From: an uncultured Candidatus Saccharibacteria bacterium
GTDB lineage: Bacteria > Patescibacteriota > Minisyncoccia > Minisyncoccales > RBG-13-42-11
Direction of reading: 5' to 3'
Assembly: GCA_964481125.1 (NCBI GenBank)
Contig: CAYZSL010000002.1
Location: forward strand, 24,597 to 88,596
Length of the DNA: 64,000 nt
This document shows, one piece after another, positions 7,135-53,225 of the stretch. Positions within the stretch are counted from its first letter, which is position 1. Every line of letters begins with the position of its first letter. The notes under the pieces are model-generated. The model was given only the letters and a program-made list of their open reading frames with translations. It was not told where the DNA came from and did not search any database. Both the position numbers and the translations under genes were made by a program.

Positions 7135-8385
7135 CTATTTCTTAATTCCTCTAAATTCGGTATAAAAAGTAGTTTTATCCTCGATATTTTCAAAAACAAC
7201 AGAATTCGGCCCGATCGAGCAGTCAGAACCAATCAAAACGCCGGGCATCAAAGAAGATCTGATGCCAATTTTCGTGTTTTTGCCGACAATCGCCCCCAAA
7301 GATTTCAATCCCGTGGTTATCCCTGGCTTAACTATTATCTCCCCTCTATCAACTCTGACATTGGCAGTAATTGTTCCTGATCCGACAAGACATCCTTCTC
7401 TAAAAACCGAATCGCCAAAATAACCAGAATGAATGGTTGTGTCTTGCTGGAAGATTGTTCGAGTCACTTCCGCAAAAGCGCCGATTAAAACATTGTTTTC
7501 TAAATTGGAATAACCGCGAATCAAAGAATTGTTGCCGATAATGCTATTAGCCCCTATATAGCAAGGCCCTTTAATAGTTGCATTTTCAAAAATCCTAACA
7601 TTTTCACCGATATAAACATTACCTTCAATAATTACATTTTTTGCAAGCTTAGCTGACTTTTCAATTTTCGGCTTCAAAAGCTTATTGAATAAATACTTTT
7701 CGATAATAAATAAATGCCATGGATATTTCAAAAAAGGAATATCTTCCTCTTTCTCCTGTAAAATAACTAATCTGACATCATTGTTCTTTATATATTCAGA
7801 AAGCGCTGCTTCAAAATTATACTTTCCTTGTTCCGCCTTCTCGAAAGTCTGAAAAAAATCTTTTGATAATAAATAAATACCGGATACTTTAATGTCCGAG
7901 GGCGCTTCTGATGGCTTTGGCTTTTCAATAATCTCTGTAATTTTATCTCCGCTTACTCTTGCCATGCCGAAAAGTTCAGGAGTCTTTGTTTTCTGGCCGG
8001 CTAAAACAGCTTTTGCTTCCCCTAATTTTGATATTAATTGATTAAAAACGTCTGAACACTCAACCATTTCAGCGTTTAAAACTATGAAATTATCTCTTAT
8101 TAAATCTTTAGCCTGCCATAAAGCATCTCCCATGCCATTGGCTTCAGCTTGGATTATGTAAGTTATTTTGCATTTGGGAAATTGATAATCAGAAAGTTCT
8201 TTTTCAAGTGCCATTTCTTTATCCTGCACAATTATAATTTCATTTATGCCAGATTTAATTAATCCGTCTATCGTATACCAAATCAAAGGCTTTCCCATTA
8301 TTTTAATAAGAGATTTATGCTTTCCGTTTAGCGGCCAAAAACGAGAAGATTCACCTGCCGCCAAGATTACTGCTTGATACTGCAT
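7135..8385 (-). CDS. bifunctional sugar-1-phosphate nucleotidylyltransferase / acetyltransferase (GlmU-like)
   Basis: 416 aa. N-terminal nucleotidyltransferase motif ([14 protein letters not shown]) and C-terminal left-handed beta-helix hexapeptide repeats. Confidence 0.75.
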
Positions 8386-8389
8386 AATT

Positions 8390-9835
8390 TTAATAAGTTT
8401 TTTTCTTCTTATGTAAGTCAGCCGTCCTATAGCTTAAGGGTCTGGAAAACATTGGAGCGCCGATATTCTTGATCAATTCCTTTTTCTTTTTTTCCATTAA
8501 ATTACGGGTTTTTGCCTCCACCACTAACTTTATTACCGGTTCAGTATTGGACGGCCTTACTAAAAACCACCAATCCTTAAAATCCGCCCTTAAACCGTCC
8601 TGTTCTGAAATCTTACCTGTTTTATACTTCTTTTTCAATTCTTTGATTTTCCCCTCTTTTGCTTTTGTTTCAAAATATATTTCGCCAGAATGAAAATACT
8701 TTTGAAGAGGTTTTATCAGTTCCGATAAAGTTTTTTTGGTTTTTTCCATTTCATTTACAATCTTTAAAAATACAAAGAATGGAACTTCGTAAAATAAGTT
8801 TTGCCCTAGATAATAATGGCCAGATACTTCCCCACCAAAAAAAATATTATCTTTTCTCATTTTTTCTTTTATTAAAGCATGTCCAATTTTAAAATTGATA
8901 GGAACACCACCATCTTCTTTAATAACTTCCTTTAAAACGTTACTCGACCGAATATCATAAAGAATTTTTGGCTTATTTTTTCCTTTCCATTCCTTTAATA
9001 TAATTTTAGCCATCAAGGCAGTTATCAAATCCCCCCTGATCGGATTACCTTTTTCATCAATAAATATGATTCTGTCAGCATCTCCATCTAAAATAATGCC
9101 AAAATTAGGCTTCTTTTTTCTGACCAAAGAAACAATATCCTTTAAGTTATTTCCAAAAGAAGGATCAGGAACATGGTTAGGGAAATCGCCATCTGGTTTG
9201 CAATAAATAGGATAAACTTTAATGCCTGTTTTTTTAAGAACCTTGAGGAAAATGGGGCCGCCCATTCCATTCCCAGCATCAATTGCAACAGATAATTTTT
9301 TAAATGTTTTTTTATTTATCTTATTTAATTTAAAAACAAAATTTATATAATCTTTTTCAATGTTTTTCTTAATGATTTTGCCCTTTAATGGGGGTAATTT
9401 TTCTTTTTGAAAGGCTTTCTTCGCTAATTGATCTCTCATCCAAAAAATTCCAGTTTCGCCAGAAAGAGGAATGGTTTTCTCGCGCGTTAATTTAAAACCA
9501 TTGAAAGGATTGGGATTATGCGAGGCGGTAATAATTATTCCTCCGTCAAGTCTTAAATGGGAAACTGCAAAATAAAGAGCAGGAGTTATTATTAAACCTA
9601 AATCAATAATATTGCATCCTTCTTGAATAATTCCTTTCGAAAGTCCTCGAAAAAGCTCAGGGGAAGAATAACGAATATCTCTTGCTATTCCAACGGTTAA
9701 TGTCTTCTTTTTTGATTTTTTCCGCAAAAAATGAATAAAGTAACGGCCAACTCGATAAGCCATTTCTTCATTAACATCCTGAGGATATATTCCCCTGATA
9801 TCGTAAAGACGAAAAATTTCTGGATTAATTTTCAT
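8390..9835 (-). CDS. phosphoglucomutase/phosphomannomutase family (PGM/PMM or GlmM-like)
   Basis: 481 aa. Active-site TASHNP motif and the four-domain alpha-D-phosphohexomutase architecture. Confidence 0.8.
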
Positions 9836-10651: not shown

Positions 10652-11631
10652 AATTTGAATAAAGCTTTTGCTAATTTATTGGAATCGTGACGGATAAGGC
10701 TTCTTTTTAAAATGTCTCCGGGAATGCGCTTTGTCTCTTTTTTGCTTAAAAAATCTCCCCTGATTACTTTAAAATAACTATCTTTTAAATCGTCAACAAC
10801 CGGAAACTCTTTTACTTTCTTGTATTTTGCCAAAGCGCTTTTTGGCATGGATTTTGTATTAATTAAAACATAATCTAAACAATCACGTCCTAAATATTTT
10901 TCCAAAACCTGAATATGGTCTTTGGCAGTAAAACCGAATGTCTGGCCGTATCTTGTCATTAAGTTCATAACATATACTACCTTAGCTTTAGTCTTTTTAA
11001 GAGCACCAGCTATTCCTTCAGTCAGTAATCCAGCTATTAAGCTGGTGTACAAATCACCAGGCCCGATAACAACCAAATCCGCCTTTAAAATCGCGTTCTT
11101 TACTTCTTGATGCAGCTTAGCTTTCGGCTTCAAAAAGACTTTCTTAATCTTTAATTTACCATTATGCTTAGGTCCATCAATTAAATGCTCTCCGATAACT
11201 TTCTTTCCGTTTTCATAAATTGCCACTAAATTTGAATCAGTCAGAGTCACTGGCAAAATTCTACCTTTAATTTTAAGAATCTGGCTTGTTTTCTTAATCG
11301 CTTCCATTTGAGAGCCGAAAATGTCGGACAAAGCAGCTAAAAACAGATTGCCAAAAGTCATACCCTTTAGCCCATTTCCTTTTGAAAAACGATAAATGAA
11401 AAGTTTTCTTAATGACTGCTCTTTGCCTTCTTCAGCTAAAGCAACAAAACACTGCCTTATATCGCTGGTCGGCAGCAAACCCAATTCGTCACGGATAACC
11501 TTGTTGCATCCTCCGCTGTCGGTCATGGAAACAACAGCTGAAATATCAGCCGGATACTTTTTTAAACCGGAAAGAACCGTAAAAGAACCGGTTCCACCCC
11601 CAATAACAACGATTTTCTTAGTTTTTGACAT
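10648..11631 (-). CDS. YvcK/CofD family protein (UPF0052, gluconeogenesis factor-like)
   Basis: 327 aa. N-terminal VVIGGGTG Rossmann motif and YvcK/CofD-like conserved blocks. 4-bp overlap with the upstream gene. Confidence 0.75.
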   Translation of the reverse strand: MSKTKKIVVIGGGTGSFTVLSGLKKYPADISAVVSMTDSGGCNKVIRDELGLLPTSDIRQCFVALAEEGKEQSLRKLFIYRFSKGNGLKGMTFGNLFLAALSDIFGSQMEAIKKTSQILKIKGRILPVTLTDSNLVAIYENGKKVIGEHLIDGPKHNGKLKIKKVFLKPKAKLHQEVKNAILKADLVVIGPGDLYTSLIAGLLTEGIAGALKKTKAKVVYVMNLMTRYGQTFGFTAKDHIQVLEKYLGRDCLDYVLINTKSMPKSALAKYKKVKEFPVVDDLKDSYFKVIRGDFLSKKETKRIPGDILKRSLIRHDSNKLAKALFKL

Positions 11632-11679: not shown

Positions 11680-12939
11680 ATGATAGATAAATTTTTAATA
11701 CAAGGAGGTATTCCTCTTTCTGGAGAAGTTGAAATCTCAGGTTATAAGAATTCAGCCGGCGCTATTTTGGCGGCTGTTTTGCTTTCTGAAGAACCTTCTG
11801 TTATTGATAACCTTCCCCAGGTAACTGATGTTTCAAACCAGATTGAAATTCTAAGGCAAATGGGCGCAGAGATCGAACAATTAACTCCGAGAAAAATAAG
11901 AATTAACCCGAAAAACATAGACCCTGAAAAAATCCCAACAGACCTCTTTGAAAAAATGAGGGTTTCGGTATTGTTCATCGCTCCTTTAGCTATAAGGTTC
12001 AAAAAATTCAAAATCCCCCATCCTGGCGGGGACAAAATAGGCTTAAGGCCAATAGCCACGCACTTGGAAGCTCTTGAAAACTTCGGAATAAAAACAGAAG
12101 AAAAAGACGGCTTTTACCATTTCCAAGCACCAGAAAGAATAGAAGGAAAGAAAATAGCTTTAAAGGAGTTTTCAGTGACTGCCACGGAAATCTTAATGAT
12201 GTTAGCTAGTAGAGCCCAAGGAAGAACTAAAATTGAGATTGCCGCTGCCGAACCTCAGGTCCAGGATTTAGGAATGTTTCTGAGAAAAATGGGGACGAAT
12301 ATAGAAGGAATCGGAACTCATACCATTGAAATTGAAGGAAAAGATAAATTATCAGGCGCTGAATTCTCATTATGCCCTGATTTACTGGAAGCTGGAACAT
12401 TTTTTATAGCTTTTGCTTTAACTGGCGGCGAAGGGAAAATAAAGAATGTAAATCCAGACCACATGACTTTTTTCCTGGGAAAAATGAAAGAAATCGGGGT
12501 GAACTTCGATGTTTCGAACAATGAAATTTCAATTAAGAAATCAAATAATTTCAAACCGGCCAAAATCCAGGTTCTTCTTTATCCCGGCTTCCCCACTGAT
12601 TTGCAACCCCAAACATCCGTTCTATTAACCCAATGCCAAGGCAAGTCTCTCGTACACGACCCGCTGTATGAAAACCGATTCCAGCATTTGCACGAATTAA
12701 GAAAGCTGGGTGCTGACATTGAGATCACTGATCCCCACCGGGCTCTGATTTTCGGCAAAACAGAATTAATCGGTAATAAAATAAACGCCTCAGATATCAG
12801 GTCAGGCGCTGCCTTAATCCTGGCAGGATTAATTTCAAAAGGCCAGACAACGATTGAAAACATTTCCCAAATTGAAAGAGGACACGAAAATATTGAGGAA
12901 AAACTGAAAAAGCTAGGAGCTAAAATTGAAAAGATTTAA
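11680..12939 (+). CDS. murA: UDP-N-acetylglucosamine 1-carboxyvinyltransferase
   Basis: 419 aa. EPSP-synthase fold; MurA-type sequence throughout. Confidence 0.9.
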   Translation: MIDKFLIQGGIPLSGEVEISGYKNSAGAILAAVLLSEEPSVIDNLPQVTDVSNQIEILRQMGAEIEQLTPRKIRINPKNIDPEKIPTDLFEKMRVSVLFIAPLAIRFKKFKIPHPGGDKIGLRPIATHLEALENFGIKTEEKDGFYHFQAPERIEGKKIALKEFSVTATEILMMLASRAQGRTKIEIAAAEPQVQDLGMFLRKMGTNIEGIGTHTIEIEGKDKLSGAEFSLCPDLLEAGTFFIAFALTGGEGKIKNVNPDHMTFFLGKMKEIGVNFDVSNNEISIKKSNNFKPAKIQVLLYPGFPTDLQPQTSVLLTQCQGKSLVHDPLYENRFQHLHELRKLGADIEITDPHRALIFGKTELIGNKINASDIRSGAALILAGLISKGQTTIENISQIERGHENIEEKLKKLGAKIEKI

Positions 12940-12991
12940 TAAATTGAAAATCGTCAAAGAGGCGGTTTTTTTGTTTTTTAGTAATGTATCT

Positions 12992-13013
12992 GGATGAACA
13001 ATGTTAGAACCTG
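12992..13013. promoter_or_regulatory. box-1 repeat copy a (GGATGAACAATGTTAGAACCTG)
   Basis: Member of the GACGATGTTAGAAC(C/T)TG motif family that recurs 3' of minus-strand genes in the 13-18 kb array. Confidence 0.5.
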
Positions 13014-13029
13014 GTTTGTAAAAGAAAAA

Positions 13030-13062
13030 TCCCCGAGCATATAACCCAGGGATTTTGTGGAC
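13030..13062 (-). terminator. rho-independent terminator after the 63-aa gene
   Basis: Minus strand: AAAATCCCtgggttatatgctcgGGGATTTTT. Confidence 0.5.
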
Positions 13063-13092
13063 AAAAACTCTCAACAGTTAATCTTCCCTACT

Positions 13093-13284
13093 CTATTTTA
13101 GTTCGGTCCTGATTTTTTTAGGCAACGCTTGCCACTCTTTCCAGGTAAAACGAGACACCCCATCGCAATTTGAACATTTTGCTATGGGCCCATTAACCGG
13201 TTGGTGATTCTTATCTTCACCATCCCAAAAACCTGTTTGTTTCCATTGATGATTACAATCTTTGTTTGGTTTCTTTTCGTCCAT
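13093..13284 (-). CDS. hypothetical small Cys/His-containing protein (63 aa)
   Basis: ATG at 13284 preceded by a strong SD (GAAAGGAGGAAATAatg). CNHQW..CSNCDG motif. The longer ORF to 13386 lacks an RBS. Confidence 0.45.
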   Translation of the reverse strand: MDEKKPNKDCNHQWKQTGFWDGEDKNHQPVNGPIAKCSNCDGVSRFTWKEWQALPKKIRTELK

Positions 13285-13307
13285 TATTTCCTCCTTTCTG
13301 AAATTTA

Positions 13308-13559
13308 TCAATCGTCGTGCGGTTTGAATTTCATCGGTCGAGTGGGAAATCTCGGGGAAGAGACAACATCGACTCTTTTTTTGCATTTAGGGCAGTAACT
13401 GAACTTACATGGGTATATCTTTTGTGCCTTATCTTTAGATAATATCTCTTCTCCTACCCTCAGCTTTGTCCCACAGTCTTTACAGAACATTTCGCCGAAT
13501 TCAAGTTCTCCTACGTCCTTTAGGTTTAATTCCTTCGCTATTTTATTATAATGAGCCAT
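13308..13559 (-). CDS. hypothetical Zn-ribbon protein (83 aa)
   Basis: Strong SD (AAAGGAGGTGTAGCTAatg). Two CxxC pairs (CKDCG..CPKCKK). Confidence 0.5.
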   Translation of the reverse strand: MAHYNKIAKELNLKDVGELEFGEMFCKDCGTKLRVGEEILSKDKAQKIYPCKFSYCPKCKKRVDVVSSPRFPTRPMKFKPHDD

Positions 13560-13620
13560 TAGCTACACCTCCTTTACTATTATCATATTATTGTTTATTT
13601 CTAGAAAATCAAGCCCTCTA

Positions 13621-13650
13621 CCAAAAATCGCCTGTTTGGCGAGGTGGCCG
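13621..13650 (-). promoter_or_regulatory. hairpin + TTTTTGGTAGAG module (terminator / extended -10-like)
   Basis: Minus strand CGCCaaacaGGCGATTTTTGGTAGAGG. Paralogous to the modules at 14425-14462 and 17040-17078. Confidence 0.4.
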
Positions 13651-13652
13651 AA

Positions 13653-13687
13653 ATTAGCTCCGCATCGTGGACGACGTTAGAACCAGG
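13653..13687. promoter_or_regulatory. box-2 copy b2 (ATTAGCTCC..GGACGACGTTAGAACCAGG)
   Basis: Shares TTAGCTCC and ACGnTTAGAACC with the long repeats at 17091-17155 and 17977-18049. Confidence 0.5.
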
Positions 13688-13734
13688 ATTATGGGAATTG
13701 AAGACGTTTTTGTTCCCGATTTGGATCTGTCTTC

Positions 13735-13753
13735 GGGACGATGTTAGAACCTG
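13735..13753. promoter_or_regulatory. box-1 copy b1 (GGGACGATGTTAGAACCTG)
   Basis: Directly abuts the stop codon of the gene at 13756..14391. Confidence 0.5.
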
Positions 13754-13755
13754 TT

Positions 13756-14391
13756 TTACTCTAAAAACCTAAAGGTAGAAAGTATTTGACTGAAAGTTCC
13801 ACAATTCCCTGAATAGCATTCTATAGGTTCAAGTTGATTGAATTCGTATAATTTTCCTTCTTTAAATATGCCTACATAAGCCTTGCTACTTTCATCTTGG
13901 GAAAAAGAAACAACAATTTTATATCCACTTAACCCTCCCACAGTAATTTCTTCTTTTTCAATTAAAGCGTCTCCAAACCCTGCTTCTTTCATCAATACCA
14001 TTTGTTCTTCAAACTCATCTTCCCATTCGGCAAGCGAAGAATACCATGTTTTGATTTGAAGCTCTATTCGTTCTATCGGGGGCAATCCATCAGAAAAATT
14101 CTTAATTTCCTCAATGGACATATTTCTAAACTCAATTTGATAATTTGATAATTCGACATGCCAATTATTAGGATATTTCATCTCAAACCCATATTCTTCA
14201 TTCTTATAAGTTTGCCAATCAGCAGTTTCATCTTGAATTGTTATAATTGTAAAGGTTGTTTGTTGTTCTAATAATGTAGTTGGTTCTGTTTTGGAGTTTT
14301 TACTTCCGAGAAAGTAAAACAATATTAAAAGTCCTCCAAGAAATACAACAATAAATATAATTAAAATTTTAGAAAAAGCTTTGTTTTGCAT
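13756..14391 (-). CDS. secreted/membrane-anchored paralog family protein A (N-terminal TM; ETADWQTYKNEEYGFEMKYP; C-terminal ILSTFRFLE)
   Basis: 211 aa. Shares the DETADWQTY(K/R)NEE(Y/C)GFE block and the ILSTF(K/R)F(L/I)(E/D) motif with the genes at 14634..15704 and 16121..17032. Confidence 0.6.
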   Translation of the reverse strand: MQNKAFSKILIIFIVVFLGGLLILFYFLGSKNSKTEPTTLLEQQTTFTIITIQDETADWQTYKNEEYGFEMKYPNNWHVELSNYQIEFRNMSIEEIKNFSDGLPPIERIELQIKTWYSSLAEWEDEFEEQMVLMKEAGFGDALIEKEEITVGGLSGYKIVVSFSQDESSKAYVGIFKEGKLYEFNQLEPIECYSGNCGTFSQILSTFRFLE

Positions 14392-14424
14392 ATTATTGTA
14401 TTATTTAATTAATCTTTCTTTATT

Positions 14425-14462
14425 CTACCAAAAAACCGCCCAAAACAATAGGCGGAATATTG
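14425..14462 (-). promoter_or_regulatory. hairpin + TTTTTTGGTAGAAT (extended -10-like) module upstream of paralog A
   Basis: Minus strand CCGCCTATTGTTTTGGGCGG-TTTTTTGGTAGAAT. The same module recurs upstream of paralog C at 17040-17078. Confidence 0.45.
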
Positions 14463-14463
14463 T

Positions 14464-14489
14464 CAGCTCGCCAAGTCGGACTTGAACCT
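14464..14489. promoter_or_regulatory. box-2 variant (AGGTTCAAGTCCGACTTGGCGAGCTGA on minus strand)
   Basis: Aligns with the minus-strand AGGTTCTAAGCG..GGGGAGCTAA of the other box-2 copies. Confidence 0.35.
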
Positions 14490-14566
14490 GCCAGCTAAGA
14501 GGAGATTTAGGTCGTTTGGGGAGTGGTACAGCCACGCGTCTCGGTCGGGGCTATTTTAAGCTAAAA

Positions 14567-14582
14567 TGTAACAAATGTTACA
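14567..14582. promoter_or_regulatory. perfect palindrome TGTAACAaaTGTTACA (operator-like), with a second half-site-bearing copy at 14601-14613
   Basis: 7-2-7 inverted repeat in the intergenic region between paralog B and paralog A. Confidence 0.35.
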
Positions 14583-14613
14583 CTAGAAAGGTATATTGGA
14601 GTGTTACATTTTA

Positions 14614-14630
14614 TGACGATGTTCGAACTT
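14614..14630. promoter_or_regulatory. box-1 copy c (TGACGATGTTCGAACTT)
   Basis: Lies immediately 3' of the paralog B stop codon. Core GTTCGAAC is a perfect palindrome. Confidence 0.5.
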
Positions 14631-14633
14631 ATT

Positions 14634-15704
14634 TTAGTCTAGAAATTTAAAAGTATTTTCTATTTTTTCCATTAAACCGCGATTTTGATCAAAATATTCT
14701 TTTGAACCGCTTGCCCCCCTCAACATATAAACAATATTATCACGGATAAAATATGTAGTAACAGTGGGGAAAATAAGAGACTCGTCATGGATCTTTCTTA
14801 CCGCCACCTCTCCCCCGATAATAATCCTTTCCTCTTCCGATTTAATCATACTATCAATGCTTTTACCTTCGCTATCATAAATTATAATATCTAGATCTAT
14901 TTTTTCATTAGGATCAATATCTTGTGTAGTAAACACATGATTTGGGTTATCGCTAATATTTGCAATTCTTTCACCAAGTATAGTTGGATCGCATGTGTAT
15001 TCTTCGGAAGTTAAAATAATACCCTCGGAATATTTTACATATTCACCAACTTTCAGATAAAACTCCTTAGGATATTTTATTTCAAAACCACATTCTTCAT
15101 TCCTGTAAGTCTGCCAATCGGCAGTTTCGTCTGACGTTGAGGTTGATGTCAGATTTGTAGATGGCGTTTCGGTAGATGTTGGCGTAGATACTGAAGTTTT
15201 AGGTATCCACCAATATTGATAAGCTAAAATAGCTCCACCGATGATTGCGGCAGCCAAAACAGTGATAAGGATGCCTATGGGGATAGATATTGTTTTATCT
15301 ATTCCATTAATTTTTTCTTGGTTCGTTATTCTTCTATCTAAATATTGGGCAAATAATATAATAAGGAAAGGTATCCCGAAAAATAAAATATTTGATAAAT
15401 CTGTTTTGTCTAACCTTCCCTGGGTCACAAAAAATAAGCGGTAAGCTTGAAATTCAAGCCAGATTATCCCTAAAATAATCAATCCATAAAGGTATTTGGC
15501 TTTTGTTTTCCTGAAAAACATTATTGAACCGTAAATTATAAAAGGTGCAAAAATAACATTTATGATGAGCGGCCATAAATTTACGTCTTTCCCGCCCATC
15601 AATACGCCGAATAATCCGAGGATAGACCCCCAGAAAAATAGATTAGCTAAACCAAAAAAATATATAGCAATAATAATATTTACTGCGGTAATTATTTTTT
15701 TCAT
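14634..15704 (-). CDS. paralog family protein B (multi-TM N-terminal region + ETADWQTYRNEECGFEIKYP domain; C-terminal ENTFKFLD)
   Basis: 356 aa. Four to five predicted TM helices, a Ser/Thr-rich linker, then the conserved paralog domain. Confidence 0.6.
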   Translation of the reverse strand: MKKIITAVNIIIAIYFFGLANLFFWGSILGLFGVLMGGKDVNLWPLIINVIFAPFIIYGSIMFFRKTKAKYLYGLIILGIIWLEFQAYRLFFVTQGRLDKTDLSNILFFGIPFLIILFAQYLDRRITNQEKINGIDKTISIPIGILITVLAAAIIGGAILAYQYWWIPKTSVSTPTSTETPSTNLTSTSTSDETADWQTYRNEECGFEIKYPKEFYLKVGEYVKYSEGIILTSEEYTCDPTILGERIANISDNPNHVFTTQDIDPNEKIDLDIIIYDSEGKSIDSMIKSEEERIIIGGEVAVRKIHDESLIFPTVTTYFIRDNIVYMLRGASGSKEYFDQNRGLMEKIENTFKFLD

Positions 15705-15724
15705 AATTAATTTAACGATATAAA

Positions 15725-16087
15725 TTAAACGAATCTTTTAGAGATTTTCCAGAAATAAACTAAAATCAGAGTCTGAATAACGGCTGCTATAAGCTGTATA
15801 TTGTCTATACTACGAGATGACAAAAAAGAATAAATTGTATTGATAATAGCTAGGGCAGTTATAACAGTATAGCCATAAAGAGCCCATTTCTTCATTTTTC
15901 GAAGACCGAATGAAGTAACAATAAGACCGACAGCGACAATCAATTCAAGCAATGCTAAGACGGGACTAAAAAGTAAAAGAGGCAATACCATAAACAATGA
16001 ACCAATTCCACCAAGCAATAAAAGAACTGATATATTTTTTACTGGTGATAGAAAAGATGATTTTTCTAAATCTGTTCCTATTTCCAT
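15725..16087 (-). CDS. hypothetical small membrane protein (about four TM helices)
   Basis: 120 aa, hydrophobic throughout. Sits between paralogs B and C. Confidence 0.45.
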   Translation of the reverse strand: MEIGTDLEKSSFLSPVKNISVLLLLGGIGSLFMVLPLLLFSPVLALLELIVAVGLIVTSFGLRKMKKWALYGYTVITALAIINTIYSFLSSRSIDNIQLIAAVIQTLILVYFWKISKRFV

Positions 16088-16120
16088 AATTTAAAATCTG
16101 TTAATTTATTAAATCGACCT

Positions 16121-17032
16121 TTATTCTTTAATAATGCTGAAAAAATCATCGCTGGAATCTGATAATGTGGCTCCTTTCACTCCTGGAAAAGCTCTCATTA
16201 CAATTTTGTATTTAGTGCCTAGCGGAATTGACGAGGGTATCGTCCAAAAATACGGGGGAGCGGCAACATTATCATTAATCATATATGTTTTTGTGGGAGC
16301 AGATAACCAATCCTCAAGCCAAATTGAAACATCGTAAGGCTGTTCCCAATCTATTTTATATGTTTTTCCAATTTCCCAAACTTCTCCGCCATTAGGAGAA
16401 ATCAAAATGAATTTATTTAAACTATCCTCTTCAATAAATTTAAAAGTGGAAAGTATTTTCTCAACACCATCCCTGACCTCATCTTTATACCATCCTGCAG
16501 CATCCCAAAAATCTCCATCAGAAGGACCTAAAGAGCTATAAATAGCAAAAAATTCATTATTTTCTGTTAAGTAACGAATAAATAATTTTTCATCAGTTTT
16601 TATTTCTTCACAAACTTTTTCTCCATCATTTCTTAAACAATAATCTTGAGGACATAATTTTATAAAAAACATATTTTCATATTTATCTTTTGGCATACTT
16701 CCAAAATATGGCTCTATGGGTTTAGTTTTAAAACTTAAAAGGACACATTCTGCTTCAAAAGGAAAGTATCCCTCAGTTGTTGTTCCAATCTCAATTTGAT
16801 ACCCATTTTCTTCAAAGACTGAGGGAACTTCAAATTCAAATCCATACTTCATATTCCTATAAATACCCCCATCGGCAGTTTCGTCGATTGGTTTTTCAGA
16901 AATAACTATATCTGGTTGGTTAGACAATTCTTCCTGGAAGTTGAAATACCGCCAATAGATAAATCCTCCAGCTAATATGGCTGAGATTAAGACAATACTA
17001 ATAGCTATTGTTGTAGGTATTTTCTTGTTCAT
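16121..17032 (-). CDS. paralog family protein C (N-terminal TM; IDETADGGIYRNMKYGFEFEVP; internal ILSTFKFIEE; C-terminal extension)
   Basis: 303 aa. Same domain as A and B plus an extra ~110-aa C-terminal domain. Confidence 0.6.
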   Translation of the reverse strand: MNKKIPTTIAISIVLISAILAGGFIYWRYFNFQEELSNQPDIVISEKPIDETADGGIYRNMKYGFEFEVPSVFEENGYQIEIGTTTEGYFPFEAECVLLSFKTKPIEPYFGSMPKDKYENMFFIKLCPQDYCLRNDGEKVCEEIKTDEKLFIRYLTENNEFFAIYSSLGPSDGDFWDAAGWYKDEVRDGVEKILSTFKFIEEDSLNKFILISPNGGEVWEIGKTYKIDWEQPYDVSIWLEDWLSAPTKTYMINDNVAAPPYFWTIPSSIPLGTKYKIVMRAFPGVKGATLSDSSDDFFSIIKE

Positions 17033-17039
17033 ATTACTC

Positions 17040-17078
17040 TATTCTACCAAAAAACCGCCCAAACAATAAAGCGGTATT
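17040..17078 (-). promoter_or_regulatory. hairpin + TTTTTTGGTAGAAT module directly upstream of paralog C (leaderless-type spacing)
   Basis: Minus strand CCGCTTTATTGTTTGGGCGG-TTTTTTGGTAGAATagagtaatATG. Confidence 0.45.
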
Positions 17079-17090
17079 ATCCACAAGTAA

Positions 17091-17155
17091 TTAGCTCCCC
17101 CTATGCAACACGCTTAGAACCTTAGATTGGATAAAGATAAGGGAAGAATTAGAAG
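17091..17155. repeat. 65-bp direct repeat copy 1 (box-2 d2: TTAGCTCCCCCTATGCAACACGCTTAGAACCTTAGATTGGATAAAGATAAGGGAAGAATTAGAAG)
   Basis: About 80% identical to 17977-18049. Together they flank the Cys-rich gene. Confidence 0.7.
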
Positions 17156-17181
17156 CTTTCGTTATAAAAGTGCCTGCTTTT

Positions 17182-17199
17182 GGACGATGTTAGAACTTG
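17182..17199. promoter_or_regulatory. box-1 copy d1 (GGACGATGTTAGAACTTG)
   Basis: Same motif family, about 75 bp downstream of box-2 d2. Confidence 0.5.
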
Positions 17200-17310
17200 T
17201 ATTTATTTTTAGAAATGAAAAGCCCGCAGAGTTTTGGTTTCTCTTTGGGCTTATCTATTCTTTTAGACCTTATCCCGCTAAGATATTTGGCAGGATGCGT
17301 AGCGAGAACG

Positions 17311-17904
17311 CTATGTGTCCAAGGATTTCGGATTACTCTCCCAGCTTCGCATTATTTTCTTAATCTGCTGGGCCAGGTTGGGCGATTCTTTGAGCTTCTC
17401 TATGAAAACAGGGCACGCTGAACATTCTGTAGCTTTCCCGCCGAACAACAACGATCCTACAAGGGTCTTTGTTAGGGATTTTCTCGGGTCATCATCTTGA
17501 TTCCCGGGCCCTTTAATTTTTGTCTTTTCTTCTTCTTCCGTCATCGTCGGCGGCTCAAGACAGAACTTTTCCCAACCACAAGCTTTGCATTGAGGCAATG
17601 CCTCCTTACTGTCCTGCATTAGCTCTTTAATCTTTTGCGACAAGACGGACTCGTCCATCCTCCGCGCAAGACCGGGACAAACCTGACAGACCTTATCTTT
17701 GCCCAGAAACATCATCGTCCCCATCAGCATACCGAATCCAGCATCCTCTGGGTTATCAAACTCCTCTCGGGCATCTCTCTCCATCGCCCTGAGAGTCGTT
17801 TGCACCTCTTGCCAGGTCATAACCGGTGGTTTAATGCAGAACTGGTTCCACTTACAAGTCTTACAGTTTACCATTGTTTCAACCTCTTCGAGTATGTCAG
17901 CCAT
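17311..17904 (-). CDS. Cys-rich tandem-domain protein (2 x [CKxCxWxxFC..PP..CxxCP]), hypothetical metal-binding
   Basis: 197 aa with SD GGAGG 8 nt upstream. Internal duplication of a ~90-aa unit. About 48% GC, well above neighbours. Flanked by the direct repeats at 17091-17155 and 17977-18049. Confidence 0.6.
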   Translation of the reverse strand: MADILEEVETMVNCKTCKWNQFCIKPPVMTWQEVQTTLRAMERDAREEFDNPEDAGFGMLMGTMMFLGKDKVCQVCPGLARRMDESVLSQKIKELMQDSKEALPQCKACGWEKFCLEPPTMTEEEEKTKIKGPGNQDDDPRKSLTKTLVGSLLFGGKATECSACPVFIEKLKESPNLAQQIKKIMRSWESNPKSLDT

Positions 17905-17941
17905 TTAAAACCTCCAACAATTATTTTATTTTGCTTAAAAT

Positions 17942-17971
17942 AATAATACCATATTATATGGTATTTGTCAA
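17942..17971 (-). promoter_or_regulatory. sigma70-like promoter TTGACA-17-TATTAT for the Cys-rich gene
   Basis: Minus strand CTTGACAaataccatataatatggTATTAT, immediately downstream of the repeat copy 'e' GAGCTAA box. Confidence 0.45.
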
Positions 17972-17976
17972 GTTTT

Positions 17977-18049
17977 TAGCTCCCCCCTATTGGATACGTT
18001 CAGAACTTTAGATTGGGTAAACATAAGGGAAAAGATGAGGGAATTGAGG
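17977..18049. repeat. direct repeat copy 2 (box-2 e)
   Basis: TTAGCTCCCCCCTATTGGATACGTTCAGAACTTTAGATTGGGTAAACATAAGGGAAAAGATGAGGGAATTGAGG. Confidence 0.7.
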
Positions 18050-18171
18050 TTTGCGTAAAGGAAAAGAGCTCAACTGGCGTTGGCTCTTTCTCTTCAATTA
18101 CCTTAGGTCGCTGAGGGCAACCTGATTAGCCAAGAAGCGACTAATCTGTTTAGGATTTTTAACCTAAGTTT

Positions 18172-18426
18172 TTATGCAAACATTGGTCGATACCAGGCCT
18201 TTGGCACGTTTGCATCAATCCACTTGATGGCGACCTCTTTTAAGGTCAACCAAAATATGGAATATAGGGGGGCAGGATATTCATCTGCGGGTCTGTCCCA
18301 AGTAATCCTGTAACCTGGCGTTAATTCCTCAATCTTCGGAATTGCCATCTCCATAACCTCTTCTGCTTGATCTTCAAACATTCCTTTGTCAACCAGCATT
18401 TTTTTAAGCTTTTCTCTTGTTGTCAT
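18172..18426 (-). CDS. hypothetical protein (84 aa)
   Basis: RBS GAGGAAGGA upstream; hairpin terminator downstream (18050-18110). Confidence 0.45.
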   Translation of the reverse strand: MTTREKLKKMLVDKGMFEDQAEEVMEMAIPKIEELTPGYRITWDRPADEYPAPLYSIFWLTLKEVAIKWIDANVPKAWYRPMFA

Positions 18427-18511
18427 TATTTCCTTCCTCTCAGTCTGCTTAGCATTTTTCTAAATCAGCCTATAACAAAATAATACCACATAAATGTGGT
18501 TTTGTCAATAT

Positions 18512-18540
18512 TGGCTCCGGAGGTAGGATTCGAACCGCTA
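18512..18540 (-). other. tRNA 3'-end-like fragment (GGTTCGAATCCTACCTCCGGAGCCA) without a matching 5' half
   Basis: The reverse complement reads as T-loop + T-stem + acceptor 3' strand + discriminator + CCA, but no D-arm, anticodon arm or pairing acceptor 5' strand is present. It abuts the iorB stop codon. Confidence 0.35.
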
Positions 18541-19122
18541 ATTCTTTTTAGCTAATTCGAACGCTTTCAAGTTTAACTCCAAATATTTTTCCGGAATTAG
18601 CTTTTTAATAGCTTTTTGAATAGATAGCGGCTTTAAAGGTATTAAACCTTTAAAAGCGGCAAAGCTCATTAAATAAATCCCTGATACAACGCTGTTTCCC
18701 AGCTTTTCCTGGCAGATTTTTTCAGCTGGAATCAAATGAATGTTTTTGCTGATTTTTTTTAACTGATTCATAATTTCAGCTTCAGACAAAGGTTTTTTCA
18801 AAGGAATGGGAATGACAAACTTATTTATTAAAAAGTTTGTTTTCGGATTGGCAAAATATAGTCCGTTTAAAATCTCCTGCTCTTCCAATCCTAAAACCAG
18901 ATCTGCTTTACCTTGAGCAACCATAGGAGAATAAATTTTCTTGCCAAACCTGATATGCACTTCAACTGAACCGCCTCTCTGGGATAAGCCGTGAAGCTCG
19001 GAAGTCCTGACATTATAACCTTCAAACACAGCTGCTTCTGAAATTATCTGTAAAAGAGTAATCAAGCCCTGTCCTCCAGTGCCAACTATCATCATATTAA
19101 ATTGTTCTGCTTTTTTAATCAT
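18538..19122 (-). CDS. iorB: indolepyruvate/2-oxoacid:ferredoxin oxidoreductase subunit beta (gamma-type)
   Basis: 194 aa. MIVGTGGQG motif of POR/IOR gamma domains. 4-bp overlap with iorA. Confidence 0.7.
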   Translation of the reverse strand: MIKKAEQFNMMIVGTGGQGLITLLQIISEAAVFEGYNVRTSELHGLSQRGGSVEVHIRFGKKIYSPMVAQGKADLVLGLEEQEILNGLYFANPKTNFLINKFVIPIPLKKPLSEAEIMNQLKKISKNIHLIPAEKICQEKLGNSVVSGIYLMSFAAFKGLIPLKPLSIQKAIKKLIPEKYLELNLKAFELAKKN

Positions 19123-51226: not shown

Positions 51227-51790
51227 TTAGTTTTTGTATTTTGAATTTGATTTTTTCTCTTTTTTAATCAAATTAATGACTTCCTGAACCAGTTTCTTGG
51301 GATCTTCATCATAAACAATTTTTGCCACTTTTCGGTGGGGACCGGTAATAATTGACCTTATCTTGTCGGCTGTCCCGCCTGTTCCTTCCAAAACGCCTAT
51401 TGGCTTTTGGATTTCAAAGGCAGTGGTAAATTCGTGCAAAGTGCCCATTCTGCCGCAGATAATGATAACTGCATCTGCTGACTTTGTCATAATGGTATCT
51501 CTGCCCACGTAATCTGCTCCGGTATAGATCATAACGTCAAAAGGCTCTAAAGGCAGTTTGTAAGTTTTCAAATGGGCGCCCTCTGAAGTGGCTGGTGAAA
51601 AGCCAACGTTAAAACCGCCAGCTTTTTTGCATCCCAAGGCAGCAAAGTAAGGAACGCCGGTAGTCGCTCCTGTAACAAGTACGCACTTTTTCTTGGCGAT
51701 TTCCCGACCAACCTCTTCTGACACTCTTTTAATATTTCTGCAGCAATGGCTGGTTCTGGCCGCGCCTGAAACAACGATTTTGTAATTCAT
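51227..51790 (-). CDS. LOG/TIGR00725-family Rossmann protein
   Basis: 187 aa. VVSGAARTSH..GATTGVPYFAALG..ICGRMGTLHE pattern of the LOG/SLOG superfamily. GC-richer than neighbours. Confidence 0.6.
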   Translation of the reverse strand: MNYKIVVSGAARTSHCCRNIKRVSEEVGREIAKKKCVLVTGATTGVPYFAALGCKKAGGFNVGFSPATSEGAHLKTYKLPLEPFDVMIYTGADYVGRDTIMTKSADAVIIICGRMGTLHEFTTAFEIQKPIGVLEGTGGTADKIRSIITGPHRKVAKIVYDEDPKKLVQEVINLIKKEKKSNSKYKN

Positions 51791-52071
51791 AAGCTATTCT
51801 TATTTTAACACAACTCTTTAAATTAAAAAATCCCGCTATAAGCCGGATTCTTTAATAAGGGGGAATAGCTCTTGACGAACTTGATTGTTCACTTAAGTCT
51901 AGTTGGACATTGTTAGGCAGCTGCTGTATCTCCTTCATCAAAAACTATCTGTCCTTTTGGGCAAAAAACCCGCACCCCCTCACTTTTAAGTTTAATTGAG
52001 TGATATTTTTTGTCAAGATTTTGTTGATTCTAACCTCTATAAAGAAAAAGTGGCAAGGCTCTCAGCTTTAT

Positions 52072-52578
52072 CTAAATTCCAAATTTCCGGATAGCCTCAT
52101 TCATATCTTCTGCTAAAGCCATCCTTGTCATTTTTTGAATATCAGAGGGAATTGGTTTATAACTTGCTGGCATTCTAAACTTTCTGTAGTTTTGGAGTTT
52201 TTTAAACTTATCTCGTGGAAGTTCTGCGATATAAAGAAAACCATTTTTTTTATCATTAATTTTAGACCTAATTTCTTTAGCTGATAACTTTTCAATTTTA
52301 TTGATATCTATAAATGAGGATCTTTCCCTAAAATAATCAGGGTATTCTAAGTTTCTATTTATCCATTCAGATTCTTTGACTTCAATTGTCAAAAACTTTT
52401 GACAAGCACTGATAGAACTCATTAAAATAAAAAAATAAAAAAAATCCACTTCTAACTCTAAGGGGAATGTATTTCCAGCTAATTTATATTTTCTTCTTGT
52501 CTTTTTAATACGTTTTTCAAAAGACTTTTTGTCGAAATATACATTTCGTGTCTTGATATACTCTTCGAGAGCAATCAT
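52072..52578 (-). CDS. unknown protein, candidate toxin/effector partner of the Panacea-domain protein (PD-(D/E)xK-like D..EVK motif)
   Basis: 168 aa, very AT-rich. Lies 12 bp downstream of the Panacea-domain gene in the same orientation. Contains ELEVD(47)...IEVKE(66). Confidence 0.5.
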   Translation of the reverse strand: MIALEEYIKTRNVYFDKKSFEKRIKKTRRKYKLAGNTFPLELEVDFFYFFILMSSISACQKFLTIEVKESEWINRNLEYPDYFRERSSFIDINKIEKLSAKEIRSKINDKKNGFLYIAELPRDKFKKLQNYRKFRMPASYKPIPSDIQKMTRMALAEDMNEAIRKFGI

Positions 52579-52590
52579 AGTTTTAAAGCT

Positions 52591-53067
52591 CTATCGCTTA
52601 CCAAACTTTAATCTCAATCCTATACCCTTTGAATTATTTGTTTTTGCTCCCAATGCGATCATCGGTTTTGTTCTATAAGCTATTTCGGTAAGGGCTCTTG
52701 CGCCATATCCTTTTACTGATTCTAATAATTCATCTATTATCATCAATTCTTTGCTGTTTATTTTATCGCTATTATAATCAGAAGATTCACTAGGAGAATA
52801 TACTACAAATTCTTTCCCTGTTGTTATCGTATAGTCGCTCTTTGGAATAATTATTTTTTTATTGATTAAATCTTCAATATACAAATAAATTTTGCTATCA
52901 AAAGGACCATAATAATATCTTCTATATTTAAAATTTGATACTTGTTTTTTATATCTCTCTACGCTTATTAAGTCTACCAAATAAGCAAGCTTCATCAGGC
53001 TTGTTATTGAACATTCTGGATTTTTCTTAAGTAGAGAAAAAATCAGTTGCTTGGTTTTTTCATTCAT
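52591..53067 (-). CDS. Panacea-domain (DUF4065, SocA-like) protein, candidate antitoxin
   Basis: 158 aa. SLMKLAYLVDL...YRRYYYGPFDSKIY matches the KLxKLlYxaD...W/YxYGPv..ly signature of DUF4065. Confidence 0.55.
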   Translation of the reverse strand: MNEKTKQLIFSLLKKNPECSITSLMKLAYLVDLISVERYKKQVSNFKYRRYYYGPFDSKIYLYIEDLINKKIIIPKSDYTITTGKEFVVYSPSESSDYNSDKINSKELMIIDELLESVKGYGARALTEIAYRTKPMIALGAKTNNSKGIGLRLKFGKR

Positions 53068-53153
53068 ATTGTAATTATATTATTATAGCAGCTCTGTTAA
53101 AAGAATACAAGTAAAATAAAAAACTGCTCAAAAATGAATATTTTACTTTAATA

Positions 53154-53225
53154 TGCCCCCAGCAGGAATCGAACCTGCATTTTGAGTTCCGGAAACTCAT
53201 GTTTTATCCATTAAACTACAGGGGC
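53154..53225 (-). tRNA. tRNA-Pro (anticodon CGG), CCA not encoded
   Basis: Reverse complement: acceptor GCCCCTG/TGGGGGC, anticodon stem GAGTT/AACTC with loop TCCGGAA, T-arm GCAGG-TTCGATT-CCTGC. Confidence 0.8.

Follow-up and report, generated by a model that had tools for sequence, protein, structure and literature searches.

The junction between murA and iorB in the 64-kb stretch of DNA analysed here (the window), from a Parcubacteria-type bacterium of the candidate phyla radiation (CPR), is on balance probably an integration hotspot for gene cassettes bounded by att-like repeats, with the recombinase that would act on them encoded elsewhere. Eight open reading frames (ORFs), all on the minus strand, fill a slot of 5.6 kb between the two genes (in order from iorB: h84, gc197, psbP303, tm120, psbP356, psbP211, zn83 and zn63; Table 1). 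The tRNA-like repeats at the junctions within this slot are the most informative feature of the region and the main new result, and had been missed by the initial annotation of the same DNA. The block is 100% identical in four further assemblies from the same population, and is therefore real sequence and no assembly artefact.

The junction repeat was first seen by reading the intergenic DNA and has a 16-nt core, GGTTCTAAC(A/G)TCGTCC (exact form GGTTCTAACATCGTCC). At up to three mismatches there are five copies of the core in the 64 kb against 0.25 expected, all on the minus strand and within positions 12996-17197, and each is located downstream of a cassette gene, two at 4 nt past the stop codon and two after a 3' untranslated region (UTR) of approximately 80-115 nt. 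The full site is approximately 31 nt long and has the form GGTTCT-N17-GGAGCY; its fuller copies (C, F and G) extend through CGGAGCY to GGAGCTAA and adjoin a promoter-like element, with a terminator hairpin fused to TTTTTGGTAGAAT or TTTTTGGTAGAGG at C and F, and a TTGACA-17-TATTAT promoter at G. Within the window the exact TTTTTGGTAGAAT string occurs only in the array, a hairpin scan found 14 terminator-like hairpins in the region against 4.2 expected, and the two best promoter-like sites (11 of 12 each) precede h84 and gc197. The slot comprises five cassettes, each with its own promoter-like element and most with a terminator-like hairpin, in which the 5' borders are formed by a full-length site in four cassettes (the tRNA-like T0 among them) and by the shorter tRNA-like Dp in the psbP211 cassette, and the 3' borders by the 16-nt core.

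T0, which adjoins iorB, reads as the 3'-terminal 25 nt of a tRNA-Asn, and the internal sites resemble the T0 sequence with approximately 5-6 extra nt in the T loop. A pattern derived from T0 and its counterpart in locus L029 (L numbers denote individual loci or contigs) matched seven IMG/VR contigs, and in five of the seven the match was the 3' end of a tRNA-Asn(GTT) gene. In L029 the T0 copy reads GGTTCGAAT-CCCATCCCTGGAGCC and the internal site AGTTCTAATATTGTACCATCCCTGGAG, and a tRNA-like fragment beginning GGTTCGAATCC opens seven slots, in each case right after the iorB stop codon. No tRNA was called at Dp, and no tRNA-Asn gene was found in any fetched CPR locus.

The surroundings of the slot were compared across 100 loci fetched around murA orthologs, onto which the window genes were mapped (murA identity of 73-93% by the feature-table range, the fetched set spanning 51-93%). 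The order murA, followed by the convergent iorB-iorA-glmS-leuS, is conserved in approximately 70 relatives, and in most loci holding both genes murA and iorB end with overlapping stop codons or with stops only a few bases apart. Inserts of 0.6-5.1 kb were present in only 11 loci (L005, L006, L025, L026, L028, L029, L032, L048, L068, L086 and L088). The block is thus accessory, as had been supposed: this comparison of syntenic murA-iorB regions found the slot empty in most of the approximately 70 relatives and filled with unrelated genes in the 11. No window cassette protein has a homolog in any of the 11 inserts, and no two slots have a protein in common; L025 has a murA 93% identical to that of the window, yet its insert is completely different. 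The cargo of the other slots includes HTH regulators, a PP-loop ATPase, LysO, FMN reductase, HAD hydrolase, uridine kinase, methyltransferase and LeuCD-type genes; that of the window consists mostly of envelope proteins. Site-bearing slots are spread over at least three parts of a neighbour-joining tree of murA, with empty loci as their sisters (e.g. L088 vs L096), although a tree of one gene counts as weak evidence.

Two side observations concern the same junction. In L005, a related Nealsonbacteria metagenome-assembled genome (MAG), a cassette with a 234-aa gene lies beside murA. A stretch of 56 nt from the 3' end of murA is directly duplicated at the flanks of this cassette (12101-12156 and 11234-11289; 96% identity, E 5.6e-22), which looks as if it had inserted into, or recombined through, the end of murA. 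At the 3' end of iorB in 11 further loci (L009, L043, L044, L045, L047, L051, L053, L071, L089, L093 and L097) there is a repeat of approximately 46 nt (ctcgcgagcgacagcgaagcggtgaaatgaactttagttcattga) that contains an inverted repeat of its own. The number of tandem copies ranges from one to three (L044 has three and L045 two), the slots are otherwise empty, and the repeat looks like a small mobile or expanding element targeting the same junction.

A search of 1.13 Mb of related loci with the window 16-mer at up to three mismatches gave nine matches. Eight of these fall within murA-iorB slots, all in the same orientation, and come from five loci other than the window: L005, L026, L029 (four copies), L032 and L088. 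A 27-nt profile placed all 14 of its matches at E<1 within slots, which make up 2.8% of the DNA; 13 of the 14 are training copies, the independent evidence being the 16-mer search. In L029 single sites stand between successive cassettes, the series opening with a tRNA-like copy at iorB and closing with a terminal copy beside murA, and the TTTTTGGTAGAAT promoter module recurs before cassettes in L005, L029, L032 and L086.

Outside the slot, copies of the site were found at the edge of phage-gene-bearing DNA and on other contigs. The exact site ACAGGTTCTAACATCGTCCagttccCGGAGCC occurs once in IMG/VR, at the end of the 14.8-kb contig L105, where it marks the exact point at which AT-rich DNA with a terminator (approximately 110 nt) ends and GC-rich DNA begins; the latter runs on without a break into genes for terminase, SPP1-type portal and capsid. 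In many of the 98 contigs related to L105 a gene for a tyrosine recombinase (LLGHxxIxTTAIY) lies upstream of the terminase gene, at a distance of 1-2.5 kb that falls just outside L105. Two core-site patterns gave only L105 in IMG/VR, and the Dp site and the left arm of F and G gave no match there; the neighbours of the 202-aa and 449-aa genes of L105 showed no CPR link, and a BLAST comparison of the L105 junction with INPHARED phages gave nothing relevant. In L106 a homolog of gc197 (62% identical) has a full site of the F/G type upstream and a core site, ACAGGTTCTAACATAGTCCagttcc, downstream, the upstream element being 79% identical over 67 nt to window positions 17082-17148. Among 5.8 billion proteins gc197 has three homologs only, and no two of them share a context; those in L107 and L110 follow a P-type ATPase gene and an HD-domain gene, respectively. 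The unrelated CPR contig L118 has one more copy of the core, GGTTCTAACATTGTCCACGATGC, within a variable region, and this copy is identical to site C at 21 of 23 positions. None of the contexts of PsbP-like homologs was a murA/iorB slot.

Two of these contigs have further features of their own. At positions 180-252 of L106 a core copy in inverted orientation (GGGACGGTTAGAACT) stands approximately 35 nt beyond a full site, GGTTCTGAATGCGTCCCATAGGGGGAGCC; no other inverted pair was seen, and the arrangement resembles the R''/R' layout of an integron attC site. Contigs L118 and L119 differ from L120, of the same CPR population, downstream of a PsbP-like gene (approximately 7300-9500): L120 has an IS481-type transposase, and L118 and L119 have a DUF3800 gene and small ORFs, then the core site copy and a repeat of approximately 70 nt (beginning ttcggataaggtctcgtag).

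The arms of the site permit a different reading, in which it is a structured RNA, a GGUUCU/GGAGCC hairpin with a 17-nt loop in the 3' UTR, that controls the stability, processing or termination of accessory transcripts, perhaps by partial tRNA mimicry. The arms, GGTTCT and GGAGCC, are kept at a fixed spacing of 17 nt, or 12 nt in the tRNA-like form, and can pair at five to six positions in most of the 14 copies. At two positions there are G-C to A-T changes on both sides, a co-variation that is suggestive only as a sign of pairing; the invariant T.G pairs at positions 3 and 6 are acceptable in RNA, and full copies with a D4-type module lie upstream of an intrinsic terminator and so would be transcribed. 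However, Rfam gave no match in the region at the gathering threshold or at E up to 5, except a chance match to DUF805b, the helix is short, wobble-rich and represented by 14 copies only, the copies at 3' borders keep the core without the second arm, and the L105 copy borders foreign DNA and not the 3' UTR of a gene. We regard a structured-RNA role as very unlikely.

If the junction is an integration hotspot, the site would be recombined by an integrase of the tyrosine type whose gene lies outside the array, be it in a phage, in an integrative element or at some other place in the chromosome; circular or element-borne cassettes carrying one site would insert into a resident site, each insertion would duplicate it, and later decay would leave cargo genes between site remnants. 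The att-like repeats would derive from the 3' end of a tRNA-Asn. In favour of this reading count the restriction of the core to the array in the window and, for eight of nine matches, to the slot in related loci; the unrelated cargo that the sites flank there (HAD hydrolase, PP-loop ATPase, LysO, FMN reductase and HTH protein); the empty slot of most relatives; the likeness of T0 to tRNA-Asn; the L105 junction; the sites around the gc197 homolog of L106; the fixed spacing of the site arms and their two-sided changes; and the promoter module that recurs in other slots. Several observations weigh against this reading. No integrase or recombinase was found in the window by Pfam among all ORFs of at least 120 aa in the 64 kb, a tyrosine-recombinase motif search of the hotspot loci was negative, with none in the 12 filled slots, and ARAGORN and Rfam found no intact tRNA in the window slot or in the 11 other filled slots. 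Empty relatives are without intergenic DNA, and no resident attB is visible in them. The inserts of L025, L048, L068 and largely L006 are without the site, and the slot has therefore also been filled by other routes. The window borders E/F, B/C and D/Dp are doublets, of which simple serial integration into one site predicts none. The four other assemblies of the population, being identical, give no direct sign of ongoing mobility, and no junction site lies near homologs of zn83 elsewhere. The phage junction is a single case, with no copy of the site in 80 related phage loci (821 kb), and could be an assembly join through the shared repeat.

The main rival explanation is a hotspot of homologous recombination without a dedicated site-specific system, in which inserts between convergent core genes are tolerated and swapped via murA and iorB, and the repeat is a conserved regulatory or insulator module (3' UTR element, terminator and promoter) carried along with genes from a shared donor pool. 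The lack of a recombinase in the window and hotspot loci and the slots filled without the site (L025, L048 and L068) favour this explanation, as do the murA duplicate of L005, which shows murA itself taking part in some events, and the constant fusion of the site to a terminator hairpin and, in full copies, also to a -10-like element. However, the repeat is absent from all other intergenic regions of the 64 kb and from the 10-kb flanks of the 100 related loci; it stands at the edge of GC-rich, phage-gene-bearing DNA in L105; its first copy is a partial tRNA-Asn, a classical att remnant; and the flanking proteins of site-bearing and empty loci are only 73-88% identical, which makes a poor substrate for homologous exchange between those lineages. 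Homologous recombination as the sole process is regarded as rather unlikely. With comparable doubt we consider that the locus could represent an undescribed cassette-capture system of CPR bacteria, in which the murA/iorB junction would serve as a landing pad for promoter-bearing cassettes. The approximately 31-nt, tRNA-Asn-derived site with its two complementary arms would then play the part of attC/attI, and the integrase acting on it in trans would be one that temperate phages use as well.

Three of the cassette genes, psbP211, psbP356 and psbP303, had been named as paralogs, and they do align, although distantly, the 356- and 303-aa proteins being 34% and 27% identical to the 211-aa protein in an alignment of the three. 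Pairwise BLASTP comparisons are significant (3.9e-10, 3.3e-5 and 1e-5) and mostly confined to the transmembrane (TM) helix and N-terminal motif. The shared features listed by the initial annotation hold in part. The block DETADWQTY(K/R)NEE(Y/C)GFE(M/I)KYP is present in two of the genes, the third having DETADGGIYRNMKYGFEFEVP; ILSTF(K/R)F is found in the 211- and 303-aa proteins, with IENTFKFLD in the 356-aa protein, and its reported C-terminal position does not apply to the 303-aa protein, where it is internal and followed by an immunoglobulin (Ig)-like domain; and the reported N-terminal TM anchor is a single hydrophobic helix in the 211- and 303-aa proteins but a multi-pass domain of approximately 165 aa in the 356-aa protein. 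The 211-aa protein matches PF18933 (PsbP_2; 35.6 bits vs a cut-off of 27) and also PF01789 (25.6 bits vs 23.5). The 356-aa protein is below the cut-off for PF18933 at 17.8 bits, and the 303-aa protein has no Pfam match to PsbP families; both are tied to the PsbP-like family via the family alignment. The Kre9/KNH Ig-like domain of the 303-aa protein is a borderline match, at 24.4 bits vs a cut-off of 24.6.

An AF2 model of the 211-aa protein, the only one of the three that was modelled (32 homologs), has a predicted local distance difference test score (pLDDT) of 81; in it a TM helix spans residues 8-30 and an alpha/beta domain residues 58-211, with a disordered linker in between. Foldseek searches of the PDB with this model returned plant or cyanobacterial PsbP or CyanoP as the top 11 matches (E 6e-7 to 6e-6, probability 1.0), followed by Apa, LpqN, Tsi3, DcrB and EagT6/SciW. 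With a TM helix, linker and PsbP-like domain the three proteins are plausibly extracytoplasmic by prediction, in keeping with their earlier description as surface or membrane-anchored, and they probably act as extracytoplasmic binding or scaffold modules. Their genes are more AT-rich than the background (GC content at third codon positions, GC3, of 0.23-0.28). The cassette proteins are ordinary, those of a very large PsbP-like envelope family, and little about them is new.

The same genes had been interpreted as a locally expanding family, that is, as products of local tandem duplication and divergence of one surface-protein gene, with the flanks as leftovers of the duplicated units. Three paralogs do lie within 3.3 kb, the D4 module precedes two of them (77% identity over 61 nt), the 3' ends of two align together with the core site (80% over 41 nt), and a 66-nt motif block is 86% identical between two. 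However, at 27-34% identity the paralogs are no closer to one another than to database homologs from other contigs, and the shared blocks are conserved across the whole family, W-x-x-Y-x-N-E-E-Y-G-F-E-x-x-Y-P and S-T-F-x-F being nearly invariant in a 32-sequence alignment from other contigs. The motifs therefore mark a very large family and not a recent local expansion, and a profile of this alignment matched 38,944 representatives of 50%-identity clusters at E <= 1e-3, many with 2-5 tandem domains. The same sites also flank gc197 and zn83-zn63 here and unrelated cargo in five other species, and the promoter module elsewhere precedes genes for HAD hydrolase, PP-loop ATPase, uridine kinase and methyltransferase. 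Given these distances, family-wide blocks and approximately 39,000 clusters, and given that the three genes occupy two separate cassettes alongside unrelated ones, the claim of local expansion is not supported, and tandem duplication as the origin of the array appears highly improbable.

The 66-nt identity lies in the DNA for the DETADWQTY...KYP block of the genes for the 211- and 356-aa proteins (14168-14233 vs 15067-15132), in proteins otherwise approximately 30% identical, and reflects either very strong constraint or gene conversion. Upstream of psbP303 a -10-like TAGAAT ends 8 nt before the ATG without a Shine-Dalgarno (SD) sequence (17017-17032; cf. 14392-14427), which suggests a leaderless or near-leaderless transcript, unlike those of the small Cys-protein genes with their strong SD sequences.

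The description of the remaining genes as small Cys-containing proteins with strong SD sequences holds for zn83 and zn63, both of which have AGGAGG-type sequences (AAGGAGGTG and AAAGGAGG, respectively). Zn83 has five Cys residues in a zinc-ribbon-like CxxC...CxxC arrangement and weak DZR/Zn_ribbon Pfam matches below cut-off; its four homologs, at 66-73% identity, lie in other genomic contexts. The homolog at 73% identity, in L210 (2140-2210), belongs to a small cluster of genes; immediately upstream of the cluster, after ftsEX, lies an apparent tRNA-Gln(CTG), read by eye without a tool call. Zn63, with three Cys and one His, has no family match in Pfam, PHROGs or NCBIfam. The GC-rich gene described as small and foreign, gc197, is foreign in composition (GC 0.48 and GC3 0.56, vs a background of 0.377+-0.026 and 0.362+-0.049) but not small, encoding 197 aa with ten Cys residues in two CxxC...C...CxxC repeats; its AF2 model, at a pLDDT of 44, is unusable. 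Against PHROGs, NCBIfam and PADLOC the eight cassette proteins gave sub-threshold matches or none, and no PADLOC defence model matched any of them.

The positions of these genes and sites are given in Table 1. The ORF list and the profile matches of murA and iorB agree with the reported run of eight minus-strand genes between conserved housekeeping genes; the array does occupy the interval first assigned to it, 12990-18050, although the eighth gene, h84, and the iorB-side junction fall outside. The closest genomes are MAGs labelled Candidatus Nealsonbacteria or Paceibacterota.

Table 1. Genes, junction sites, associated elements and cassettes of the murA-iorB slot, in window coordinates
Feature	Position	Strand	Description
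murA	11680..12939	+	right-hand slot border, conserved; TIGR01072 1.9e-143
Site A	12996..13011	-	terminal core copy GGTTCTAACATTGTTC; 57 nt from murA stop
Hairpin after zn63	13026..13056	-	terminator-like; 13 pairs and T run
zn63	13093..13284	-	63 aa from SD-preceded ATG; ORF extends to 13386
zn83	13308..13559	-	83 aa
Terminator/-10 module before zn83	13615..13642	-	hairpin, T run and TGGTAGAGG
Site C	13654..13684	-	full site GGTTCTAACGTCGTCC-acgatg-CGGAGCTAA; 5' border of zn83-zn63 cassette
Site B	13736..13751	-	exact core GGTTCTAACATCGTCC; 4 nt past psbP211 stop
psbP211	13756..14391	-	211 aa; TM helix, linker, PsbP/Mog1-like domain
Repeat D4 copy 1	14398..14458	-	terminator hairpin and TTTTTTGGTAGAAT promoter module
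Site Dp	14463..14488	-	GGTTCAAGTCCGACTTGGCGAGCTGA; partial-tRNA-like, T-loop geometry; 5' border of psbP211 cassette
Site D	14614..14629	-	core copy AGTTCGAACATCGTCA; 4 nt past psbP356 stop
psbP356	14634..15704	-	356 aa; multi-pass TM domain, S/T/P linker, PsbP-like domain
tm120	15725..16087	-	120 aa; small integral membrane protein; psbP356 operon
psbP303	16121..17032	-	303 aa; TM helix, PsbP-like domain, C-terminal Kre9/KNH-like Ig domain
Repeat D4 copy 2	17017..17077	-	terminator hairpin and TTTTTGGTAGAAT promoter module
Site F with left arm	17091..17145	-	ttcccttatctttatccaatctaa-GGTTCTAAGCGTGTTGCATAGGGGGAGCTAA; repeat D5 copy 1
Site E	17182..17197	-	core AGTTCTAACATCGTCC; 3' border of GC-rich cassette
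gc197	17311..17904	-	197 aa; GC-rich, two Cys-rich repeats, foreign base composition
Promoter-like site, gc197	17943..17971	-	TTGACA-17-TG-TATTAT; 11 of 12
Site G with left arm	17976..18031	-	AGTTCTGAACGTATCCAATAGGGGGGAGCTAA; repeat D5 copy 2
h84	18172..18426	-	84 aa; phrog_31275 only, E 0.002; no family assignment
Promoter-like site, h84	18480..18508	-	TTGACA-17-TG-TATTAT; 11 of 12
T0	18512..18536	-	GGTTCGAATCCTACCTCCGGAGCCA; partial tRNA-Asn, T loop to CCA; starts 2 nt after iorB stop
iorB	18538..19122	-	left-hand slot border, conserved; IOR_beta 3e-38
h84 cassette			5' site T0; 3' site none clear
gc197 cassette			5' site G; 3' site E
psbP303-tm120-psbP356 cassette			5' site F; 3' site D
psbP211 cassette			5' site Dp; 3' site B
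zn83-zn63 cassette			5' site C; 3' site A

The remainder of the 64 kb is housekeeping in character (HisRS, Pth, TopA, GlmS, LeuRS, MetRS, IleRS, ArgRS, SmpB/tmRNA, IF3, RecO, UvrB and MurC-type genes). Within it, positions 51227-53225 hold genes for an SLOG-cluster4 protein, a 168-aa ORF without assignment and a SocA/Panacea antitoxin-domain protein beside a tRNA-Arg(CCG) (53154-53225), and may be a second small accessory patch beside a tRNA. Further along, a 779-aa protein (61639-63978) with weak matches to TrwB/VirD4-type coupling proteins and HerA-like ATPases is adjoined by a 646-aa ORF without a family match (59635-61575), and the two may be part of a DNA-transfer or uptake apparatus.

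CPR bacteria, or Patescibacteria, have very small genomes, and to our knowledge little is known of gene gain and loss among them. The locus is a concrete, sequence-defined case of gene acquisition in the CPR, in which a slot that is empty to the base pair in most relatives has been filled repeatedly within one clade with unrelated cassettes; the conserved repeat that marks these derives from a tRNA and is also found at the edge of phage-type DNA. The junction repeats define a recurrent, sequence-marked gene-acquisition slot, a variant of integrative-island and cassette-array architectures. If the repeat is a working recombination site, it would provide a searchable signature for flexible genes in uncultured CPR bacteria, a handle linking CPR hosts to temperate phages and a candidate integration site for genetic tools. 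If the cassette-capture reading is true, an integron-like gene-acquisition device would exist in organisms thought to be minimal and static in genome.

At the protein level, the 211-aa product has both a profile match above cut-off and a predicted PsbP-type fold, and shares with the PsbP/Mog1 superfamily (CyanoP, M. tuberculosis Apa and LpqN, DcrB, Tsi3 and EagT6/SciW) an alpha/beta sandwich predicted with confidence, the anchor and linker suggesting an extracytoplasmic location as in its lipoprotein and periplasmic members. Unlike the known members, these proteins have no photosystem context and only 11-19% identity to solved structures, and two of them carry an additional fused part, a multi-pass membrane domain in one and an Ig-like domain in the other.

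Among systems that move small modules, integrative mobile elements exploiting Xer (IMEX) and pdif modules use a dif-like site of 28 bp, made up of a XerC arm, a 6-nt spacer and a XerD arm, and genomes without a module have a resident dif. The present cassettes are similar to these in being small, integrase-less modules with short conserved border sites that would depend on a chromosomal recombinase in trans, but have no 11-6-11 dif-like site, and all copies are direct and do not alternate in orientation. A dif/Xer reading was rejected, there being no GC-skew switch and no 28-mer, and the empty relatives having overlapping stop codons without the site; the only likeness to a XerD arm, seen by eye, is the hexamer TAACAT. 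A dispersed repeat of the repetitive extragenic palindromic (REP) or miniature inverted-repeat transposable element (MITE) kind was likewise rejected, all copies in the 64 kb and eight of nine in the 1.13 Mb of related loci being in one slot.

Integron cassettes are promoterless, co-oriented and expressed from a common promoter, Pc, and their attC sites are imperfect palindromes of 55-141 nt (R'' RYYYAAC, R' GTTRRRY) with a conserved structure; a cluster of attC sites lacking an integrase is termed a CALIN. The present array likewise consists of small cassettes that are unrelated in function and point the same way, with a short conserved, recombination-like site after each and single separators in L029, and the core contains TTCTAAC, near R'' RYYYAAC, with signs of complementarity between its arms. 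Unlike them it has no intI (an IntI-type recombinase with attI may also be absent in CALIN) and no attI, the site is approximately 31 nt with a strongly conserved primary sequence, and the cassettes, although co-oriented, carry their own promoters and terminators. A classical attC reading was rejected because GTTRRRY is missing, the partner arm being GGAGCY 17 nt away. Nothing specific on integrons or att sites in CPR was found in the literature.

The tycheposon islands of Prochlorococcus are flexible islands anchored at a tRNA and formed as elements integrate one after another; partial tRNAs separate the elements, and many units carry cargo alone (bioRxiv 10.1101/2020.12.28.424599). The murA-iorB slot resembles such islands in being a fixed slot with different cargo in each relative, in its partial-tRNA direct repeats, in its cargo-only units without an integrase and in its link to phage-like DNA. 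It differs in that there is no intact border tRNA, the first partial tRNA abutting the stop codon of a protein-coding gene, that most repeats carry approximately 5-6 extra T-loop nt, and that each unit, a single gene or a short operon, measures 0.5-3.3 kb, with no integrase in the 64 kb, tyrosine recombinases being seen only in relatives of the L105 phage. Lacking an intact tRNA, an integrase and an attC palindrome, and with cassettes that have their own promoters, the locus is not a member of either the tRNA-anchored islands or the integrons and CALIN. The tRNA-anchored serial-integration island is its closest described analogue, and the integron or CALIN the closest in cassette size and organisation.

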